From the NCBI GenBank assembly GCA_020279385.1, contig GCA_020279385.1_4762.2: 64,000 nt of DNA, one strand, 5' to 3'. The translations under genes and the position numbers were made by a program. Origin of the DNA: a phage. The notes below the pieces were generated by a model. That model ran no database searches and was not told the origin of the DNA. It saw only the letters and a list, made by a program, of their open reading frames with translations. Of the stretch, positions 5,232-11,607 are shown in pieces (position 1 is the stretch's first letter; each line of letters begins with the position of its first letter).

Positions 5232-5478
5232 TGAACATGCGGTAAAAGCCGCAAACAAAACAGCAAACGGTCTTGCAATCGAAAAACTGGTTGTTGAAGA
5301 GGGATTGACTTATCTTGAAGCGACAACGCAGTTTGTAGAGGAAAACTCTATCGAATATGGTCACTATCAGAAGTATATTCCGGTGTCCATTATTGACAAG
5401 ATCACACAAGAATGTATAGTAAATAGAACGCTCAGGAAGGGAGTGATCGACGAACCGACCAACACTCTCGATATTTAA
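5224..5478 (+). CDS. 33: late transcription accessory protein gp33
   Basis: IEKLVVEEGLTYLEATTQFVEENSI and C-terminal TNTLD resemble T4 gp33; start chosen at ATG 5224 (track start 5209 is also possible). Confidence 0.75.
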   Translation: MLNEHAVKAANKTANGLAIEKLVVEEGLTYLEATTQFVEENSIEYGHYQKYIPVSIIDKITQECIVNRTLRKGVIDEPTNTLDI

Positions 5479-5487
5479 GGGGTATGT

Positions 5488-6165
5488 ATGATCAGAAACC
5501 GTCTTCCTCCAGATCCAGATATGCGAATTAATGCTAAATCTGTGTATATGTTATATTGCATGATGAAAGCTCATATGAACGGGCGTTATGATTGCGTAAA
5601 ATATAATTGGAGGATGCGGTTGTCTGATGCCGCATTCAATAAACGCAGAGATAAGTATTATTTCGCAAAATTAGCGGAAAAGTACAATCTAAGAGAATTA
5701 TACTTCTTATTCCTAAGCAATCTGGTAGCCAATACCGATGCATGGGTAGGTGAAATCACCGATGTTGACGCATACGGCTTTTATATGGAATACATAGGAA
5801 AGATAACTGATGCAGCAACACGATTTGACGATGACATTAAAAGTCTGGTATACTTCTCAGAGAAACGCGGGGTTACTCTTAAAGAGCTAATTACATACAA
5901 TCCCGCAACCGAAACTAGCGGTATCTTTAAACTACTGCAAAATCGGATTATATCGTTTGAGTCGTTTATGTTGTTAGATAGCTTTCTAAATATAATCGAC
6001 GAACACGATAAGGTAGCCAAAGACTTGATTTGGCAAACTTATAGTGTTAAAATGAAGGCGTACAAGAAACTACTTGTTATTGACGCCGCAAAAGCAAGAG
6101 CATTATTTGTTAAAGTAGTTAAAGAGTGTAAAGAAATATCGAGGTTAAAAGGTGAAAACATATGA
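5488..6165 (+). CDS. 59: helicase loader gp59
   Basis: 225 aa; KSVYMLYCMMKAHMNGRYDCVKYNW...SNLVANTDAW...FKLLQNRIISFESFMLLDSFLNIID colinear with T4 gp59. Confidence 0.9.
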   Translation: MIRNRLPPDPDMRINAKSVYMLYCMMKAHMNGRYDCVKYNWRMRLSDAAFNKRRDKYYFAKLAEKYNLRELYFLFLSNLVANTDAWVGEITDVDAYGFYMEYIGKITDAATRFDDDIKSLVYFSEKRGVTLKELITYNPATETSGIFKLLQNRIISFESFMLLDSFLNIIDEHDKVAKDLIWQTYSVKMKAYKKLLVIDAAKARALFVKVVKECKEISRLKGENI

Positions 6166-6748
6166 TCCTGAATTGTATGCTCGTTGTCATGAACTCTTTA
6201 AATATGATAACGGTAAGCTGATTCGCAAGATATCGACAAACCGAAAGCATAAAGTCGGATCTAGAGCGGGTGGAGTTAATCCTAGTCATGGATACAGATT
6301 GGTGTGTATCGATGGTAAACATCATAAAGAGCATAGAATAATTTTCTTTATGCATCATGGATACATGCCAAAATACGTTGACCATGTTAACCGAATTATA
6401 ACAGATAATCGGATTGAAAACTTGAGAGATGCGAACGAGCAACAAAACTCAAGAAATATGGGTAAACAGAAAGGTCGATCGTCTGAATATATCGGTGTTA
6501 GTCTTTATAAACGAGATGGTAAATATGTTGCCAATATTCAGGTCGAAAGAAAGAAGTTGATATATTTGGGAATATATGTTCATGAGAAAGCGGCAGCACT
6601 TGCGAGAAACTTTGTTGCTGATGCTATAGACCCAAACTTTTTCAACAAAACAGAAGTAGTTGACATTTCTCCCGAAGAGATGTTAGAATTTGAAAATAGA
6701 AAGCCAAAACTGTTAGATATAATTGATAAAGTATTGACAAGCAATTAA
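6152..6748 (+). CDS. free-standing HNH homing endonuclease (HNH_3 + AP2-like DNA-binding domain)
   Basis: 198 aa; GTG start with GAGG RBS; HGYRLVCIDGKHHKEHRIIF...VDHVNRIITDNRIENLRDANEQQNSRN HNH motif; EYIGVS...KYVANI...IYLGIY...EKAAALARN AP2-like; inserted between 59 and 32. Confidence 0.8.
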   Translation: MKTYDPELYARCHELFKYDNGKLIRKISTNRKHKVGSRAGGVNPSHGYRLVCIDGKHHKEHRIIFFMHHGYMPKYVDHVNRIITDNRIENLRDANEQQNSRNMGKQKGRSSEYIGVSLYKRDGKYVANIQVERKKLIYLGIYVHEKAAALARNFVADAIDPNFFNKTEVVDISPEEMLEFENRKPKLLDIIDKVLTSN

Positions 6749-6808
6749 GTATCTGATATAGTATAAAACGTAAATTAATCAATAGTTAATGTATAAAGAG
6801 GTATAATT

Positions 6809-7783
6809 ATGAACATGTTTCGTCGTCAAGATAGCTCCAAACTGCAAGCTCAACTGGCCGCACTGAAAGGTGGCAACGGTTTCTCCAAAGAAGATCCGAA
6901 AGAGTGGAAGATTAAGACTGATGCAGCAGGTAACGGTGAAGCCCTGATTCGCTTCCTGCCGTCTAAGACAGAAGACGGTCTGCCGATTGTGAAACTGGTA
7001 AACCATTCCTTCAAAGTTAATGGTAAATGGTATTGGGAAAACTGCTCCAGCACCCACGGTGATTTTGATTCTTGCCCTGTGTGCAAATATATTAACGAAA
7101 AAGATCTGTACAATACCGATAAAACCGAATGGCAACTGATTAAGCGTAAAGCGTCTTACTACGCAAATATTCTGGTACTGAAAGATCCTCAAGCACCAGA
7201 AAATGAAGGTAAGGTATTCAAATTCCGCTTCGGTCAGAAAATTTATGATAAGATCGTTGCGATGGTGAACGTGAATACCGATATGGGCGAAGTTCCGGTA
7301 GATGTAACTTGTGTGTTCTCCGGTGCTAACTTCCTCCTGAAAGCTAAGAAGGTTGATAAACACCAGAACTATGATGATTCTCGTTTCATGCAGCAATCAC
7401 AGCTTCCGAAAATTGAAGACGAAGCATATCAGAAATATCTGATGGAAAACATGGTTGATCTGAGTGAGATTGTAGCGCCTAGCCAGTTTAAACCGTTCGA
7501 TGAACTGGAAACCAAATTTAAGAAAACTATGGGCGTTTCTATGGTAGCTGGTGCTGCGGCTTCCAGTGCCGCGGCAGCGATTAACAGCCAGCTTGACGAT
7601 TTTGACGCACAGATGAATGCATTCGATTCTGGTATGACCGCAGCTAGCACTGTAGTTGGTATTAACGCAGCTAGCACGGCGTTAGATTCTTCCGCTGATG
7701 ACCTGATGGCATCTCTGGATCTGGGTGGCGGTACTTCCTCCGCTTCTGATCTGGATGACCTGGATTCTCTGTTAGCGATGTAA
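6809..7783 (+). CDS. 32: single-stranded DNA-binding protein gp32
   Basis: 324 aa; LPSKTED...[23 protein letters not shown] (zinc site), [43 protein letters not shown], acidic C-terminus; strongly T4 gp32-like. Confidence 0.95.
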
Positions 7784-7795
7784 TGAATTTTACAG

Positions 7796-7820
7796 CCTCC
7801 CTTCGGGGAGGCTTTTTTAT
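7796..7820 (+). terminator. rho-independent terminator after gene 32
   Basis: Hairpin CCTCCC-TTCG-GGGAGG followed by CTTTTTTAT. Confidence 0.8.
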
Positions 7821-7845
7821 TGCCTAAATTTTTATGAAAAAGGTG

Positions 7846-7873
7846 TTGACATGCTGATGTTAGGATGTATAAT
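7846..7873 (+). promoter_or_regulatory. sigma70-type early promoter (TTGACA-16-TATAAT) with conserved leader
   Basis: TTGACA 7846-7851, TATAAT 7868-7873, leader acaaacatcgaaacaaaggagga before ATG 7904. Confidence 0.7.
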
Positions 7874-7903
7874 ACAAACATCGAAACAAAGGAGGATAAA
7901 ATT

Positions 7904-9082
7904 ATGTTAGTACGTCAAGCACATGAGATTCGTATAGAAATAAAAGGAAACACGAAAACTCCCTTCTATTGGGAAAATGTTGTAAAAAATTCATGTTTGG
8001 AAGTTGGTTATTCTTTCATGGGGTTTGTTGGAGAATGGTCTGGTCTCAAAACAAAAGCTCTTATATTATGTAATAACAAGCATGAATACACATCAACTCT
8101 AGCAAATATCAGGAAAAAAGTTTCGTGTAAGAAATGTGTGGTTGATTCTCAAAGATTAAACCTAAACCATGTGATAGAAAGAATAAAACAAGAAACAAAC
8201 GATGTATTTGTTGGTTTTGTTGGTGGGGAGTATAAAAATAGCAGAACAAGACTCATTATGAACTGTGCAAACGGACACACATACCAACCAACATATACAG
8301 ATTTCATTCATCAAAAAACAAGATGTCCTTTATGTAACGGTGGCAAGATGTATGATAAAGAAGATTCCTTATCTTATATAAATGAAAATAAAGGAGATTA
8401 TAAATTTTTGGGTATAATTGGGGAATGGAAAGGAACAAAAACTAAACTTAAATTTGAGTGTCCTAATAATCACATTTACGAACAAAGTTATGATAAGTTC
8501 AAACTAGGTCGTCGGTGTCACAAATGTAGCGGAACAGCACCAATAACAAAAAGTGACCGATTAAAACAAATTGAAAAAATATGCGAAACCAACAGACTAA
8601 AATTTATTGGGATTTCAGGAAAGTGGAAAGGTGCATTAACAAGAATACTTCTGACATGCGAACGTAACCATGAATGGGTTGTAACTATTGATAATTTTGT
8701 TAATCGCGGAACACGCTGCCCGTTGTGTTCTAAGCATGGTTATCAGGCATTAAAGACAGGAACTCTTTATATACAGAAATTAACCAACAATGATTCCTTT
8801 GTTGGCGTGAAATTTGGAATAACAAACAAAGAAACACATGAGCGCATGAGAAACCAATCTCGTGTTTCAAAGTTCGATCACGAGATCTTTTATGAATTGA
8901 CTTTACAAGATGGTCAAAAGATCTTAGAATTAGAAAACAAAATCAAGGAAGCGATGAAAGGTAAAACTTCCTATATCTCGAAAGAAGATATGCCGGATGG
9001 CTGGACAGAGACAGTAGCGCCGTCTGAATTGAGCACTATCATGTATATCGTAAAATCTTTTGAAAAAGAGTTGACAGCGTAA
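7904..9082 (+). CDS. protein with four tandem Zn-ribbon repeats and C-terminal GIY-YIG-like (T5orf172-type) domain
   Basis: Four ~50-aa repeats of form F(V/L)G..GEW.G.KTK...C...H.Y.......C..C; C-terminus LYIQKL...FVGVKFGITNKETHERMRN...DGWTE; start set at ATG 7904 (track start 7865 lies inside the promoter). Confidence 0.6.
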   Translation: MLVRQAHEIRIEIKGNTKTPFYWENVVKNSCLEVGYSFMGFVGEWSGLKTKALILCNNKHEYTSTLANIRKKVSCKKCVVDSQRLNLNHVIERIKQETNDVFVGFVGGEYKNSRTRLIMNCANGHTYQPTYTDFIHQKTRCPLCNGGKMYDKEDSLSYINENKGDYKFLGIIGEWKGTKTKLKFECPNNHIYEQSYDKFKLGRRCHKCSGTAPITKSDRLKQIEKICETNRLKFIGISGKWKGALTRILLTCERNHEWVVTIDNFVNRGTRCPLCSKHGYQALKTGTLYIQKLTNNDSFVGVKFGITNKETHERMRNQSRVSKFDHEIFYELTLQDGQKILELENKIKEAMKGKTSYISKEDMPDGWTETVAPSELSTIMYIVKSFEKELTA

Positions 9083-9098
9083 CGCAACAGTGTATAAT
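9071..9098 (+). promoter_or_regulatory. sigma70-type early promoter (TTGACA-16-TATAAT) with same leader as the 7846 promoter
   Basis: TTGACA 9071-9076, TATAAT 9093-9098, leader acaaacatcgaaacaaagagagg; overlaps 3' end of previous CDS. Confidence 0.7.
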
Positions 9099-9129
9099 AC
9101 AAACATCGAAACAAAGAGAGGATTATATT

Positions 9130-9459
9130 ATGTGGACAGTAGAAAAAATCGTAGACGAATCAACCGAAATTGTCTCATGCGGGACTATTGAAGAATGTCT
9201 TAACGCCGCTAACCGCGATTGTATTACGGTTTATGAATCTCGTCGCGGGGATGGCAGCTTAATTCAAAGTGATTATCGTTACACCGCACATAAAATTGTA
9301 TTCCGTTTCTGGGAAAACGGTGTTAATGTTGGTGTCAGCTTACTGAAAATGTGGCGTGATTATTCCGAACGCTATTATGTTTCTCCCGATGATGGTAATG
9401 AATTTAAAACCGAGATCACAGAAGAAAATGTAAACGAAAACTTCTTTAAACTGATTTGA
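9130..9459 (+). CDS. hypothetical protein (109 aa)
   Basis: ATG 9130 after promoter and RBS; no recognisable motif. Confidence 0.5.
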   Translation: MWTVEKIVDESTEIVSCGTIEECLNAANRDCITVYESRRGDGSLIQSDYRYTAHKIVFRFWENGVNVGVSLLKMWRDYSERYYVSPDDGNEFKTEITEENVNENFFKLI

Positions 9460-9473
9460 CAGGAGATTATATT

Positions 9474-10043
9474 ATGATTCAATGTGTATTTGCGATTGGT
9501 AACACTAAAATGTCGGATGAAAATTGGGCTTTTGGTTTTAAAGGTGGCTTACCGTGGGGTCGTCCAATCAAAAAAGATATGGAAAACTTTCAAATCCGCA
9601 CTATTGGTGAGGTTGATTTTTCTGCGGTAGTAATGGGACGCAATACCTTTGAAAGTCTGCCTAAAGCACTTTGGGGACGTTTGAATGTGGTTGTTAGCAC
9701 CGATACCAACAAGCCAGAACCGAAAGCTAAAAACGGCGACCAACCTGATGTGTATACTGGAATTGAATTGAAGGATCTGTTAAAAGCCCTAGAGAAAACG
9801 CAAGGTTTGGTAAGTGTTATCGGCGGACCTTCCCTGATTGAAAAAGCGGTTGACTTTGCGGACCGTATTGTGTTAACGTATGTTCAACGTTCAGGGATCA
9901 ACGATCCATTTGAATATGATGTTGGAATCTCTAAGGAAATGATTCAGGAATTATATTTTGACTTTGCAACAAAAGAAGAACATAGTTACTTCCTTGATGA
10001 TTACCTGATCAGCGAACAAATTTTAGAACGTAAGAAGGCGTAA
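9474..10043 (+). CDS. frd: dihydrofolate reductase
   Basis: GLPWGRPIKKDMENF, VVMGRNTFESLP, VSVIGGPSLIE DHFR motifs; ATG 9474 with RBS AGGAG (track start 9456 is TTG). Confidence 0.9.
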   Translation: MIQCVFAIGNTKMSDENWAFGFKGGLPWGRPIKKDMENFQIRTIGEVDFSAVVMGRNTFESLPKALWGRLNVVVSTDTNKPEPKAKNGDQPDVYTGIELKDLLKALEKTQGLVSVIGGPSLIEKAVDFADRIVLTYVQRSGINDPFEYDVGISKEMIQELYFDFATKEEHSYFLDDYLISEQILERKKA

Positions 10044-10044
10044 C

Positions 10045-10137
10045 ATGAAAATTCTGACAGATTATGAGTGCAAACATTGTGGTGAATCTTTGATGTTTGC
10101 TGGTAGTCGGTGTTTACACTGCGGACGGGAACAATAA
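10045..10137 (+). CDS. possible tiny Zn-ribbon protein (30 aa)
   Basis: MKILTDYECKHCGESLMFAGSRCLHCGREQ; CxxC...CxxC; start overlaps frd stop, stop overlaps next ATG (TAATG). Confidence 0.3.
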   Translation: MKILTDYECKHCGESLMFAGSRCLHCGREQ

Positions 10138-10400
10138 TGAAAATCAGTATTATTCGATTATGGTCGGCAACCCATGAAAACTACGCAGTAGCAGAAGATC
10201 TTTACGGGTTGCAATATCTCTATGATGAATCGAAAGCGTCATGGTTTCCTGTACAAGAAAATAGCGATATATCAAGACCTGTTACTGTATTCGGTCCAGA
10301 CGATATTTTTATTAACATTAGCGAGACAGTAGCAAAACTGCGTAAGAAAGCAAAGAAAAAGGGGAAGTGGGATGAAAGAATATTTGAAACTGTTACGTGA
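10137..10400 (+). CDS. hypothetical protein (87 aa)
   Basis: ATG 10137 coupled to upstream ORF; overlaps td start. Confidence 0.45.
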   Translation: MKISIIRLWSATHENYAVAEDLYGLQYLYDESKASWFPVQENSDISRPVTVFGPDDIFINISETVAKLRKKAKKKGKWDERIFETVT

Positions 10401-11607
10401 TGTTATTGATAATGGCTGGCCTCGTGAAGACCGCACGGGGGTAGGTACGCTCTCTAAATTCGGCGCAGAGATGCGAATTGATTTAAGCAAGGGTTTCCCC
10501 TTACTGACCACTAAAAAGATGGCTACAGCCTCTGTAATTGGCGAATTGCTATGGTTTATGGAGGGATCACTTGACCGCCGTCGCTTACAGGAAATTACAC
10601 GCGGCAAGTTTGACGAGGAAGCCTTTGATATTTGGCGCGGCAACTGTCTTGATATGAAAGAAAAGAATCCCTTGCGATTCAATGGTTATAATGTCGGCAA
10701 TATGTATGGTATGGCGTGGCGACGCAAACCGATTCATCCACACGGTGAAATCAAAATTAAGCGAGTTAAGAGCAAATATGCACATACATTTAAGCACCCG
10801 TGGGTAGAAGACTTTACGCCAACCAATGAAACAGAAGACCGTTTATGTGCTATCTGGCGTGGTATGCGTTATGAAGAGTTTGATTCTGAATATAATCAAT
10901 TCTTAGTAGCCGATCACTGGAAGACTCAATCTAATTTTGTTAATGATGCATATTGCTTGTGGGGATTCCAGGAATGGGTAGATGATGGTTATTTCGGTTA
11001 TCTGCTTGATAGTGATTATCTGGGTGGGGATATTTTAGCACCAGATACCACGATCTTTGCTAGTATGGACGTAGACACATCAAGCACTAAAGACGATGAA
11101 GAATATGTCTATCGCCCGAAGATTTGGGAAGACCAGTTACAAAAAGTTATTGACATGATCAAGAATGATCCGTATAGTCGTCGTATTATCATTGATTCAT
11201 GGAACGTACAGGAAACGCATAATGCTGTGTTAGGTGTATGTCATCCGATGGTACAGTTTTATGTTTCCAACGACAACAAATTGAGTTGTTTATTTTTCAT
11301 GCGTTCGAATGATCTCTTTTTAGGGAATCCGTTCAACGTAGCGAGCTATGCACTGTTAACGCATATCATCGCGAAGATTTGCGGGTTAGAAGTTGGCGAA
11401 CTGGTTTATCAGTGTGGGGATTGCCACATTTACAAAAACCATTTTGATCAAGTTATGGAACAGTTAAGCCGTGTTCCGTTTGATAAACCAACAATTGAGT
11501 TGCCGGAATTTAAGTCTTTAGATGAGGTATTGACAAAGACTCCGAAAGACTTTAAAATTCACAACTATCAAAGCCATCCAGCAATCACCGCTCAAATGGC
11601 AGTATAA
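10372..11607 (+). CDS. td: thymidylate synthase with ~110 aa internal insertion
   Basis: 411 aa; TS motifs RTGVGTL, LLWFMEG, PYSRRIIIDSWNV, CHPMVQFYV, FMRSNDLFLGNPFNVASYALL, GDCHIYKNH; extra segment between GMAWRR and DQLQKVI versus ~8 aa in E. coli ThyA. Confidence 0.9.
   Translation: MKEYLKLLRDVIDNGWPREDRTGVGTLSKFGAEMRIDLSKGFPLLTTKKMATASVIGELLWFMEGSLDRRRLQEITRGKFDEEAFDIWRGNCLDMKEKNPLRFNGYNVGNMYGMAWRRKPIHPHGEIKIKRVKSKYAHTFKHPWVEDFTPTNETEDRLCAIWRGMRYEEFDSEYNQFLVADHWKTQSNFVNDAYCLWGFQEWVDDGYFGYLLDSDYLGGDILAPDTTIFASMDVDTSSTKDDEEYVYRPKIWEDQLQKVIDMIKNDPYSRRIIIDSWNVQETHNAVLGVCHPMVQFYVSNDNKLSCLFFMRSNDLFLGNPFNVASYALLTHIIAKICGLEVGELVYQCGDCHIYKNHFDQVMEQLSRVPFDKPTIELPEFKSLDEVLTKTPKDFKIHNYQSHPAITAQMAV

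Follow-up and report, generated by a model that had tools for sequence, protein, structure and literature searches.

Between gene 32 and frd, a T4-like phage carries a free-standing gene whose predicted product is a sequence-specific DNA endonuclease, one of the phage homing endonucleases of the CapR-array/T5orf172 class; we give this reading a probability of about 0.72. The gene lies at positions 7904–9082 of a 64,000-nucleotide (nt) stretch of phage DNA (GenBank assembly GCA_020279385.1, contig GCA_020279385.1_4762.2), hereafter the window. With four CapR modules and a C-terminal T5orf172/GIY-YIG-like nuclease, it is an already described type of phage homing endonuclease. The basis for the prediction is the domain identities of the protein, the conservation of its candidate catalytic residues, and the expression signals, sporadic distribution and mosaic structure of the gene.

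Homing endonucleases that combine CapR arrays with T5orf172 have been described previously (Netter 2021, PMC8096241; Barth, Dunham and Seed 2023, PMC10448857). Of 229 T5orf172 homing endonuclease genes, 200 carry CapR, DUF723 or DUF4379 zinc fingers, which are often repeated as ‘beads on a string’; recombination occurs between the repeats, domains are swapped between genes, and the nuclease genes mark boundaries of genetic exchange (Barth 2023, PMC10448857). Odn, a T5orf172 protein, binds its target and cleaves it, and T4 itself carries no T5orf172 homing endonuclease of this class (Barth 2023, PMC10448857). CapR, the capsid repressor of the Vibrio cholerae satellite PLE, binds DNA, and changing its four conserved Cys abolishes this binding (Netter 2021, PMC8096241).

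Positions 5400–10100 of the window are 99.3% identical to Escherichia phage vB_EcoM_Skers and 92–96% identical to RB49, Phi1, GEC-3S and other Krischvirus phages (T4-like Straboviridae). The gene itself is 100% identical to SKERS_100 of Skers, annotated as a ‘putative GIY-YIG nuclease family protein’; its counterparts in GEC-3S and RB49 are annotated ‘endonuclease’, and its 392-amino-acid (aa) product matches PHROG 681, ‘endonuclease’, with an E value of 3e-100. A Foldseek comparison with viral models returned 243 full-length structural relatives of the same architecture, whose names include CapR homology domain protein, GIY-YIG domain protein, homing endonuclease and T5 Orf172 protein. The first-pass annotation of this DNA, which was made from the sequence alone, had called the architecture unusual. 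Given the published norm, these structural matches and the existing annotations, it is instead typical.

Four CapR modules precede the nuclease

Four tandem Zn-ribbon repeats of about 50 aa, each with a shared motif and two Cys pairs, had been proposed for the N-terminal part of the protein. Four repeats are indeed found, at residues 26–82, 90–148, 158–212 and 222–279. Because self-BLASTP of the protein gave the identity match only, the repeats were tested by pairwise local alignment against shuffled sequences and with a repeat hidden Markov model (HMM). Repeat pairs scored 12.7–21.8 standard deviations above shuffles, none of 300 shuffles reached the observed scores, and each of the four repeats matched the HMM with an E value between 2e-19 and 9e-25. 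Pfam CapR (PF21817) matched in four stretches (101.6 bits; cut-off 24.2), and overlapping it there was a match to DUF4379, a ‘probable treble clef zinc finger’ (44.1; threshold 24.5). The motif also holds, in the form F-x-G-[FI]-x-G-[EK]-[WY]-x-x-x-x-T-[KR], in all four repeats. Length and ligands need correction: the repeat core is about 57 aa with a period of about 65 aa, and in place of two Cys pairs each repeat has C-x3-H followed, after 14–15 residues, by C-x2-C (three Cys and one His). Every unit thereby has the four zinc ligands of CapR/DUF4379, in two pairs about 20–26 residues apart, the first pair being Cys/His instead of CxxC. The modules are encoded on the plus strand at 7979–8149 (module 1; ligands C56, H60, C75 and C78), 8171–8347 (module 2; C121, H125, C141 and C144), 8375–8539 (module 3; C186, H190, C205 and C208) and 8567–8740 (module 4; C252, H256, C272 and C275).

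The CapR and DUF4379 matches support the assignment of the repeats as putative zinc-binding modules. The full-length AlphaFold (AF2) model has a mean predicted local distance difference test score (pLDDT) of 85 and a predicted template-modelling score (pTM) of 0.34, the low pTM being expected for flexibly linked beads: four independently folding Cys3His modules strung ahead of a compact nuclease domain. In this model, each unit comprises a helix, three strands and a short helix, with C-x3-H in the turn between strands 2 and 3 and C-x2-C at the N-terminus of a further short helix. Judged from this predicted secondary structure alone, the repeat fold looks like a treble clef, not a two-hairpin zinc ribbon, so that the zinc-binding part of the earlier description is kept and the ribbon fold is not.

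Arrays of this kind also occur with other partners. Eight proteins named P0042, P0044, P0046 and P0051–P0055 have CapR, DUF4379 or DUF723 arrays fused to C-termini that do not resemble T5orf172, some of them with weak, sub-threshold matches to RAP and REase_MTES_1575 (restriction-endonuclease-like by Pfam name). Such fusions suggest that the zinc array can be carried from one nuclease fold to another as a targeting module.

A GIY-YIG-like nuclease domain at the C-terminus

The remainder of the protein (aa 284–392; 8753–9079, +) is a T5orf172/MUG113-like domain of the GIY-YIG fold. The segments LYIQKL, VKFGITN, ERMRN and DGWTE, on which the first-pass annotation had based its proposal of a GIY-YIG/T5orf172-like domain, are all present as quoted. 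That proposal stands at the level of the family, in which homologues pass the Pfam thresholds, but not on the protein’s own Pfam score, which is sub-threshold (see Discussion). Across 13 diverse family members, MUG113 was matched by eight (best E value 1.1e-6), T5orf172 by seven (1.5e-5) and GIY-YIG by two. The full-length homologue P0036 (36% identity, 96% coverage) scores 23.2 against T5orf172 (threshold 20), and the full-length homologues P0032 and P0041 score 26.5 and 24.4 against MUG113 (threshold 22.3). A model of the isolated domain has a pLDDT of 94.5 and beta-beta-alpha-beta-alpha-alpha topology, as in the GIY-YIG fold.

A profile search of 1.84 billion representatives yielded 2,007 relatives (1,019 at E ≤ 1e-10), in almost all of which the domain stands at the C-terminus of a 200–600-aa protein. 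When 101 of these relatives were sampled, CapR was found in 73, DUF4379 in 28, MUG113 in 25, DUF723 in 21 and T5orf172 in 12. Y289, K303, G305, R314, E344, G366, E369 and T370 are invariant in all 101, and the candidate catalytic residues are Y289, K303-x-G305, R314, E344 and E369. Relative to the classical GIY-YIG motif, the first Tyr (Y289) and the helix 1 Arg (R314) are kept, and the K-x-G signature is one that we take to be typical of the T5orf172 consensus. Two invariant Glu, E344 in helix 2 and E369 just before helix 3, are both candidates for the equivalent of the I-TevI metal ligand E75.

PDB sequences searched with profiles of the C-domain and of the full-length alignment gave nothing meaningful, and so far as sequence can tell there is no solved structure for this family; the full model had no Foldseek match in the PDB with E ≤ 0.001. 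NCBIfam likewise gave no match for the protein. Scanning viral contigs with the 71-aa constant C-terminus gave no confirmed locus, and with an alignment 23 distant loci at ≤ 35% identity.

The homologue P0032, from a bacterial chromosome, is a 398-aa protein with four CapR modules and MUG113, 36% identical to the window protein and named ‘GIY-YIG nuclease family protein’ by NCBI. It is encoded in an Escherichia coli assembly (GCA_002543985.1, contig NMGG01000030.1; locus L034, 3961–5157) amid small unannotated open reading frames (ORFs), beside genes whose products match PHP, 2-Hacid_dh_C, PhoH and Dyp_perox.

Start site and early promoters

The ORF spans 7865–9082, and the coding sequence runs from the ATG at 7904 to 9082 (+; 392 aa plus stop). 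This start was chosen because the ATG at 7865 falls inside the −10 hexamer of a promoter, which rules it out, because a Shine–Dalgarno sequence (SD) precedes ATG 7904, and because all GenBank relatives start at the equivalent position; the coordinates and length in the first-pass annotation are therefore sound. The promoter (7846–7873, +) is a consensus sigma-70 (phage early) promoter, TTGACA-16-TATAAT, with 12 of 12 hexamer matches, and GEC-3S has a promoter annotated at the equivalent site. The SD, AAGGAGG, can be read directly at 7889–7895 (+), 8 nt 5′ of the ATG. Further upstream, a terminator scan located the gene 32 terminator at 7794–7813 (+), a G+C-rich hairpin of eight pairs, six of them GC, followed by a T-run and annotated as a terminator in GEC-3S.

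A second consensus early promoter, also with a 12/12 match and annotated at the equivalent site in GEC-3S, lies at 9071–9098 (+) and would serve a downstream 109-aa gene and frd. As its −35 hexamer encodes the last residues of the endonuclease (E-L-T-A), this downstream promoter sits within the endonuclease gene, an arrangement also known from several homing endonuclease genes of T4 (Edgell 2010).

The two promoters belong to a pair of direct repeats of about 84 bp that flank the gene at 7825–7907 and 9051–9133 (both +). Each copy comprises a perfect sigma-70 promoter, a conserved leader and an SD, and the two are 78.6% identical. These flanks are of the promoter-early stem-loop (PeSL) type: the stem-loop at 7794–7813 forms part of the upstream element, and the second copy has no obvious stem-loop. 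PeSLs recombine and excise the genes that they flank in RB49 and phi1 (Arbiol 2010). The window locus shares with the RB49/phi1 PeSL cassettes (Arbiol 2010; Comeau 2014) the flanking repeats with consensus sigma-70 promoter, leader and SD, and the upstream GC-rich stem-loop. Published PeSLs flank small ORFans in hyperplastic regions, whereas here a nuclease gene inside the replication module is flanked; the gene 32–frd locus is not mentioned in the PeSL paper.

Sporadic distribution at a fixed site

Gene 59 is followed by an HNH_3+AP2 gene, gene 32, the CapR/T5orf172 gene, the 109-aa gene, frd, a small ORF, td and nrdA. The CapR/T5orf172 gene, between 32 and frd, occupies the position of T4 frd.1–frd.3. 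Among 66 phage records matching the region, 29 carry DNA related to the gene. Eight of the 29 have this allele at 98.3–100% identity; 16 have only the last 24–30% of the gene in common with it, with homology starting at gene position 822, 823, 847, 856, 865, 895 or 896; and five share only the last ~100 nt. Three metagenomic Krischvirus genomes with other alleles have them in the same slot. In kvi and E26 the endonuclease gene is missing and a 109-aa ORF (MFLNATLSQKSD...) stands in its place; FL04 and Cognac carry both. The gene is thus sporadically present at a fixed site between conserved genes, as is the case for homing endonuclease genes.

The MFLNATLSQKSD... ORF, a promoter-flanked cassette in the gene 32–frd slot (kvi locus L029, 4004–4333; E26 L030, 3987–4316; FL04 L031, 4678–5007; Cognac L032, 5267–5596), is unrelated, follows the endonuclease gene in FL04 and Cognac, is missing from the window, and has no Pfam match even at an E value of 10. 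MIZ4, MIZ5, ELT4 and Sf20 have a short allele of 182 aa with one CapR module (MIZ4 locus L004, 3884–4811), preceded by about 380 bp of unannotated DNA after gene 32 and with a nuclease domain only 56% identical to that of the window. This short allele may be a decayed or truncated endonuclease gene.

Divergent arrays on a shared 3′ end

Alleles at the gene 32–frd locus fall into at least 39 clusters. In pairwise protein comparisons of 39 alleles, median identity is 36% in the zinc array, 58% in the first 50 nuclease residues and 97% in the last 67 residues. In the window gene, the allele-specific, hypervariable segment (7931–8878, +) covers the zinc array and the first half of the nuclease domain, and its DNA homology to other alleles is absent or fragmentary; the constant 3′ segment (8879–9082, +), the last 67 codons, is common to nearly all alleles at 94–97% nt identity. 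Synonymous divergence (dS) is 0.13–0.27 in these last 67 codons, with a ratio of nonsynonymous to synonymous divergence (dN/dS) of 0.03–0.25 that indicates strong purifying selection, and it rises to between 0.7 and more than 2.6, saturated, in the preceding 50 codons, the N-terminal half of the nuclease. Such a tenfold jump in dS within one domain points to recombination breakpoints, not to a difference in constraint.

Comparison of ten loci by segment gave the same picture. For gene 32, identity is 93–99% at nine loci and 80% at the tenth, a metagenomic contig; the array is without DNA homology or has it in fragments, the C-terminal half of the nuclease is 95–97% identical, and frd is 88–94% identical. 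The number of repeats per allele ranges from one to seven, with a mode of four. Internal repeat pairs at least 60% identical, which point to recent intragenic duplication, occur in 11 of 41 alleles, and the window repeats are at most 51% identical to the repeats of any other allele.

Carriers of the same allele are informative as well. The window and GEC-3S are ~99% identical over the cassette, 89% over the intergenic region upstream of it, 94–95% at the 3′ end of the gene and 67–85% in the next gene; a cassette so well conserved amid diverged flanks has been moved, or retained, across a mosaic boundary. The raised divergence among same-allele carriers, in the upstream intergenic region and past codon ~335, is the sole lead to the cleavage target.

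Relation to known nucleases

The closest described systems are the T5orf172 enzymes of the vibriophage ICP1 (Gp174, Gp165, Gp121, Gp53 and Gp130; Netter 2021; Barth 2023), which likewise have N-terminal, often repeated CapR-type modules and a C-terminal T5orf172 domain. Their genes, like the one described here, are free-standing beside essential genes and display repeat recombination, domain swapping and exchange boundaries. The window gene differs in its host lineage, a T4-like Krischvirus rather than a vibriophage; in its first ligand pair, C-x3-H where the ICP1 enzymes have CxxC; and in its nuclease, a divergent ‘DGWTE’ sub-branch in which only about one member in three is recognized by Pfam T5orf172/MUG113. 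Krischvirus also has a much larger series of alleles at a single fixed locus than the ICP1 enzymes do. A direct homologue is the ‘RB49ORF238c-like’ protein of phage T5 (AAX12067, 265 aa; C-domain 39% identical, E value 2e-20), which has CapR modules upstream, as here, but two rather than four, and whose free-standing gene lies among essential (tail) genes, a different genomic context. The CapR of PLE belongs to the same zinc-module family, and its DNA binding by four conserved ligands is experimentally established (Netter 2021, PMC8096241), the one case in which zinc-dependent, sequence-specific DNA binding by such a module has been demonstrated; unlike the window protein, it is a transcriptional repressor with a single module and no nuclease domain. 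In ICP1 Odn and the coliphage Odn-like nucleases, T5orf172 is tethered to a swappable DNA-binding domain, as here. Nuclease activity has been shown for Odn, whereas for the window gene a cognate host or satellite sequence was not found by blastn in E. coli genomes.

T4 SegG, the other Seg proteins and I-TevI share with the window protein a GIY-YIG-superfamily nuclease tethered to a DNA-binding region. Seg proteins and I-TevI have the GIY-YIG domain at the N-terminus. The window protein reverses this domain order and is therefore not Seg-type; in addition, it leaves Pfam GIY-YIG unmatched and has Lys for the second Tyr. Membership of the T4 Seg family (SegA–G) was accordingly rejected, the nuclease being C-terminal, PF01541 unmatched and the slot that between 32 and frd, not that between 59 and 32. 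With segG in particular, the gene has in common that it is free-standing, adjoins gene 32, embeds a downstream promoter and is expected to cause marker exclusion; it differs in lying on the opposite side of gene 32 and in having an early rather than a middle or late promoter. The first-pass annotation had set the gene next to gene 32 where T4 has segG. It does adjoin gene 32, but the site is not that of segG, which in T4 lies between genes 59 and 32 (Edgell 2010).

Neighbouring genes

The T4 segG slot, between 59 and 32, is filled by a different, free-standing endonuclease gene (6152–6748, +; 198 aa, GTG start) that shares 14 nt with the end of gene 59. Its product matches HNH_3 (E value 2.2e-11), PHROG 99 (1.5e-50) and, below threshold, AP2. 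The gene is found in Skers, MIZ4, kvi, E26 and Cognac and is missing from GEC-3S, RB49 and FL04. From this slot and distribution, gene 32 is flanked by two unrelated, independently variable endonuclease genes.

Downstream of the CapR/T5orf172 gene, the 109-aa gene (9130–9459, +; PHROG 16287, function unknown) comes in two forms that have diverged from each other. The DNA of the window copy is 93% identical to that of FL04 and only ~77% identical to that of GEC-3S, RB49, kvi and others, and the genes either side are 88–99% identical. The thymidylate synthase gene td (10372–11607, +) encodes 411 aa and matches a 266-position Pfam model end to end, which implies an in-frame insert of ~140 aa (roughly residues 117–259); the insert has no Pfam match even at an E value of 10. 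A long td product (406–411 aa) is also present in the relatives kvi and E26 and in three metagenomic contigs.

Discussion

If the protein is a homing endonuclease, its zinc modules would jointly recognize a long, asymmetric stretch of DNA, in the way shown by experiment for CapR, and the tethered nuclease domain would cut nearby. The likely substrate is the gene 32–frd region of Krischvirus genomes that co-infect the cell and do not have this allele; repair by recombination would then copy the allele and its flanks into the cut genome, resulting in homing or marker exclusion. Homology for array swaps could be provided by the conserved first ~9 codons, the last ~67 codons and the flanking promoter repeats. 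Several observations weigh against this reading. The window protein falls below the Pfam thresholds, with MUG113 at 13.8 bits (threshold 22.3; E value 0.089) and no match at all to T5orf172 or GIY-YIG (PF01541), and the position of the second GIY-YIG tyrosine is occupied by Lys-Phe-Gly (K303-F304-G305). The endonuclease-specific promoters of T4 are middle or late (Edgell 2010), and the consensus early promoter found here is atypical of T4 homing endonucleases. Finally, presence or absence of the gene and the exchange of its alleles could both arise from ordinary recombination between the PeSL-type repeats without any cutting, and such PeSL-mediated recombination may explain part of the presence/absence pattern.

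The early promoter also bears on the main rival explanation, which we consider unlikely: that the gene encodes a ‘weaponized’ or domesticated nuclease and not a selfish homing element, a weapon that benefits the phage and is expressed right after infection against co-infecting phages with other alleles, satellites, plasmids or host DNA, much as ICP1 Odn cuts PLE, with hypervariable zinc arrays that reflect an arms race over target specificity. A perfect early promoter with a strong SD, unlike those of T4 homing endonuclease genes, would suit such a role. So would the number of allele clusters at one locus (at least 39), in which arrays at 36% identity are joined to a nuclease C-half at 97% under purifying selection, and the frequent internal repeat duplication (11 of 41 alleles); Odn and the coliphage Odn-like T5orf172 proteins provide a precedent. 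However, a blastn search with the gene against 5,426 complete E. coli genomes gave no DNA similarity, and hence no sign of a host or satellite cognate of the kind that identifies Odn targets and no evidence of exchange with host-borne satellites. PADLOC gave no match either, and the pattern of variation is equally expected of ordinary homing endonucleases competing between phages, the two mechanisms overlapping.

A repressor or activator like CapR, which binds DNA without catalysis and retains a dead nuclease fold, might be expected to show early expression and a nuclease domain below Pfam thresholds, and CapR itself is a domesticated DNA-binding derivative of the family (Netter 2021, PMC8096241). 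CapR, however, wholly lacks the T5orf172 domain, whereas the window protein has it complete, with putative catalytic residues that do not vary in the 101 relatives, and the C-terminal half of the domain is under strong purifying selection (dN/dS 0.03–0.25), all of which makes this alternative very improbable. That the protein binds or cleaves RNA is barely credible. The alpha-beta-beta-beta-alpha repeats have a weak Foldseek likeness to tandem double-stranded RNA-binding domains, but these matches are below significance (E values 0.016–0.02, probability 0.2–0.5, template-modelling score about 0.1), the family is experimentally DNA-binding (Netter 2021, PMC8096241), and the nuclease fold is that of a DNA endonuclease. 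The first-pass suggestion of a multi-site DNA- or RNA-binding module is thus retained for DNA and dropped for RNA.

Beyond the assignment as a homing endonuclease, we tentatively raise the possibility, which we would not bet on, that the gene 32–frd slot is a dedicated hypervariable specificity locus, in which the constant nuclease half and the promoter flanks act as a docking platform for arrays of one to seven modules that are swapped, duplicated and deleted. If so, dozens of target specificities would coexist, kept by frequency-dependent competition between co-infecting phages, and the allele series would be a natural library for reading and engineering a modular CapR-finger DNA code, comparable in kind to the zinc-finger and TALE codes.

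The gene represents no new category of system, and the allele series is its only feature beyond routine annotation. Its assignment adds a T4-like lineage to a recently recognized class, the CapR/T5orf172 endonucleases, and does so in well-sampled coliphages that show how nuclease genes mark recombination boundaries. Of practical use is the combination of a single constant nuclease with at least 39 arrays, in genomes otherwise about 88–99% identical around the locus. This comparative set is suited to mapping target sites and the specificity of single CapR zinc modules, and with it one could ask whether enzymes of this type drive marker exclusion between therapeutic coliphages.

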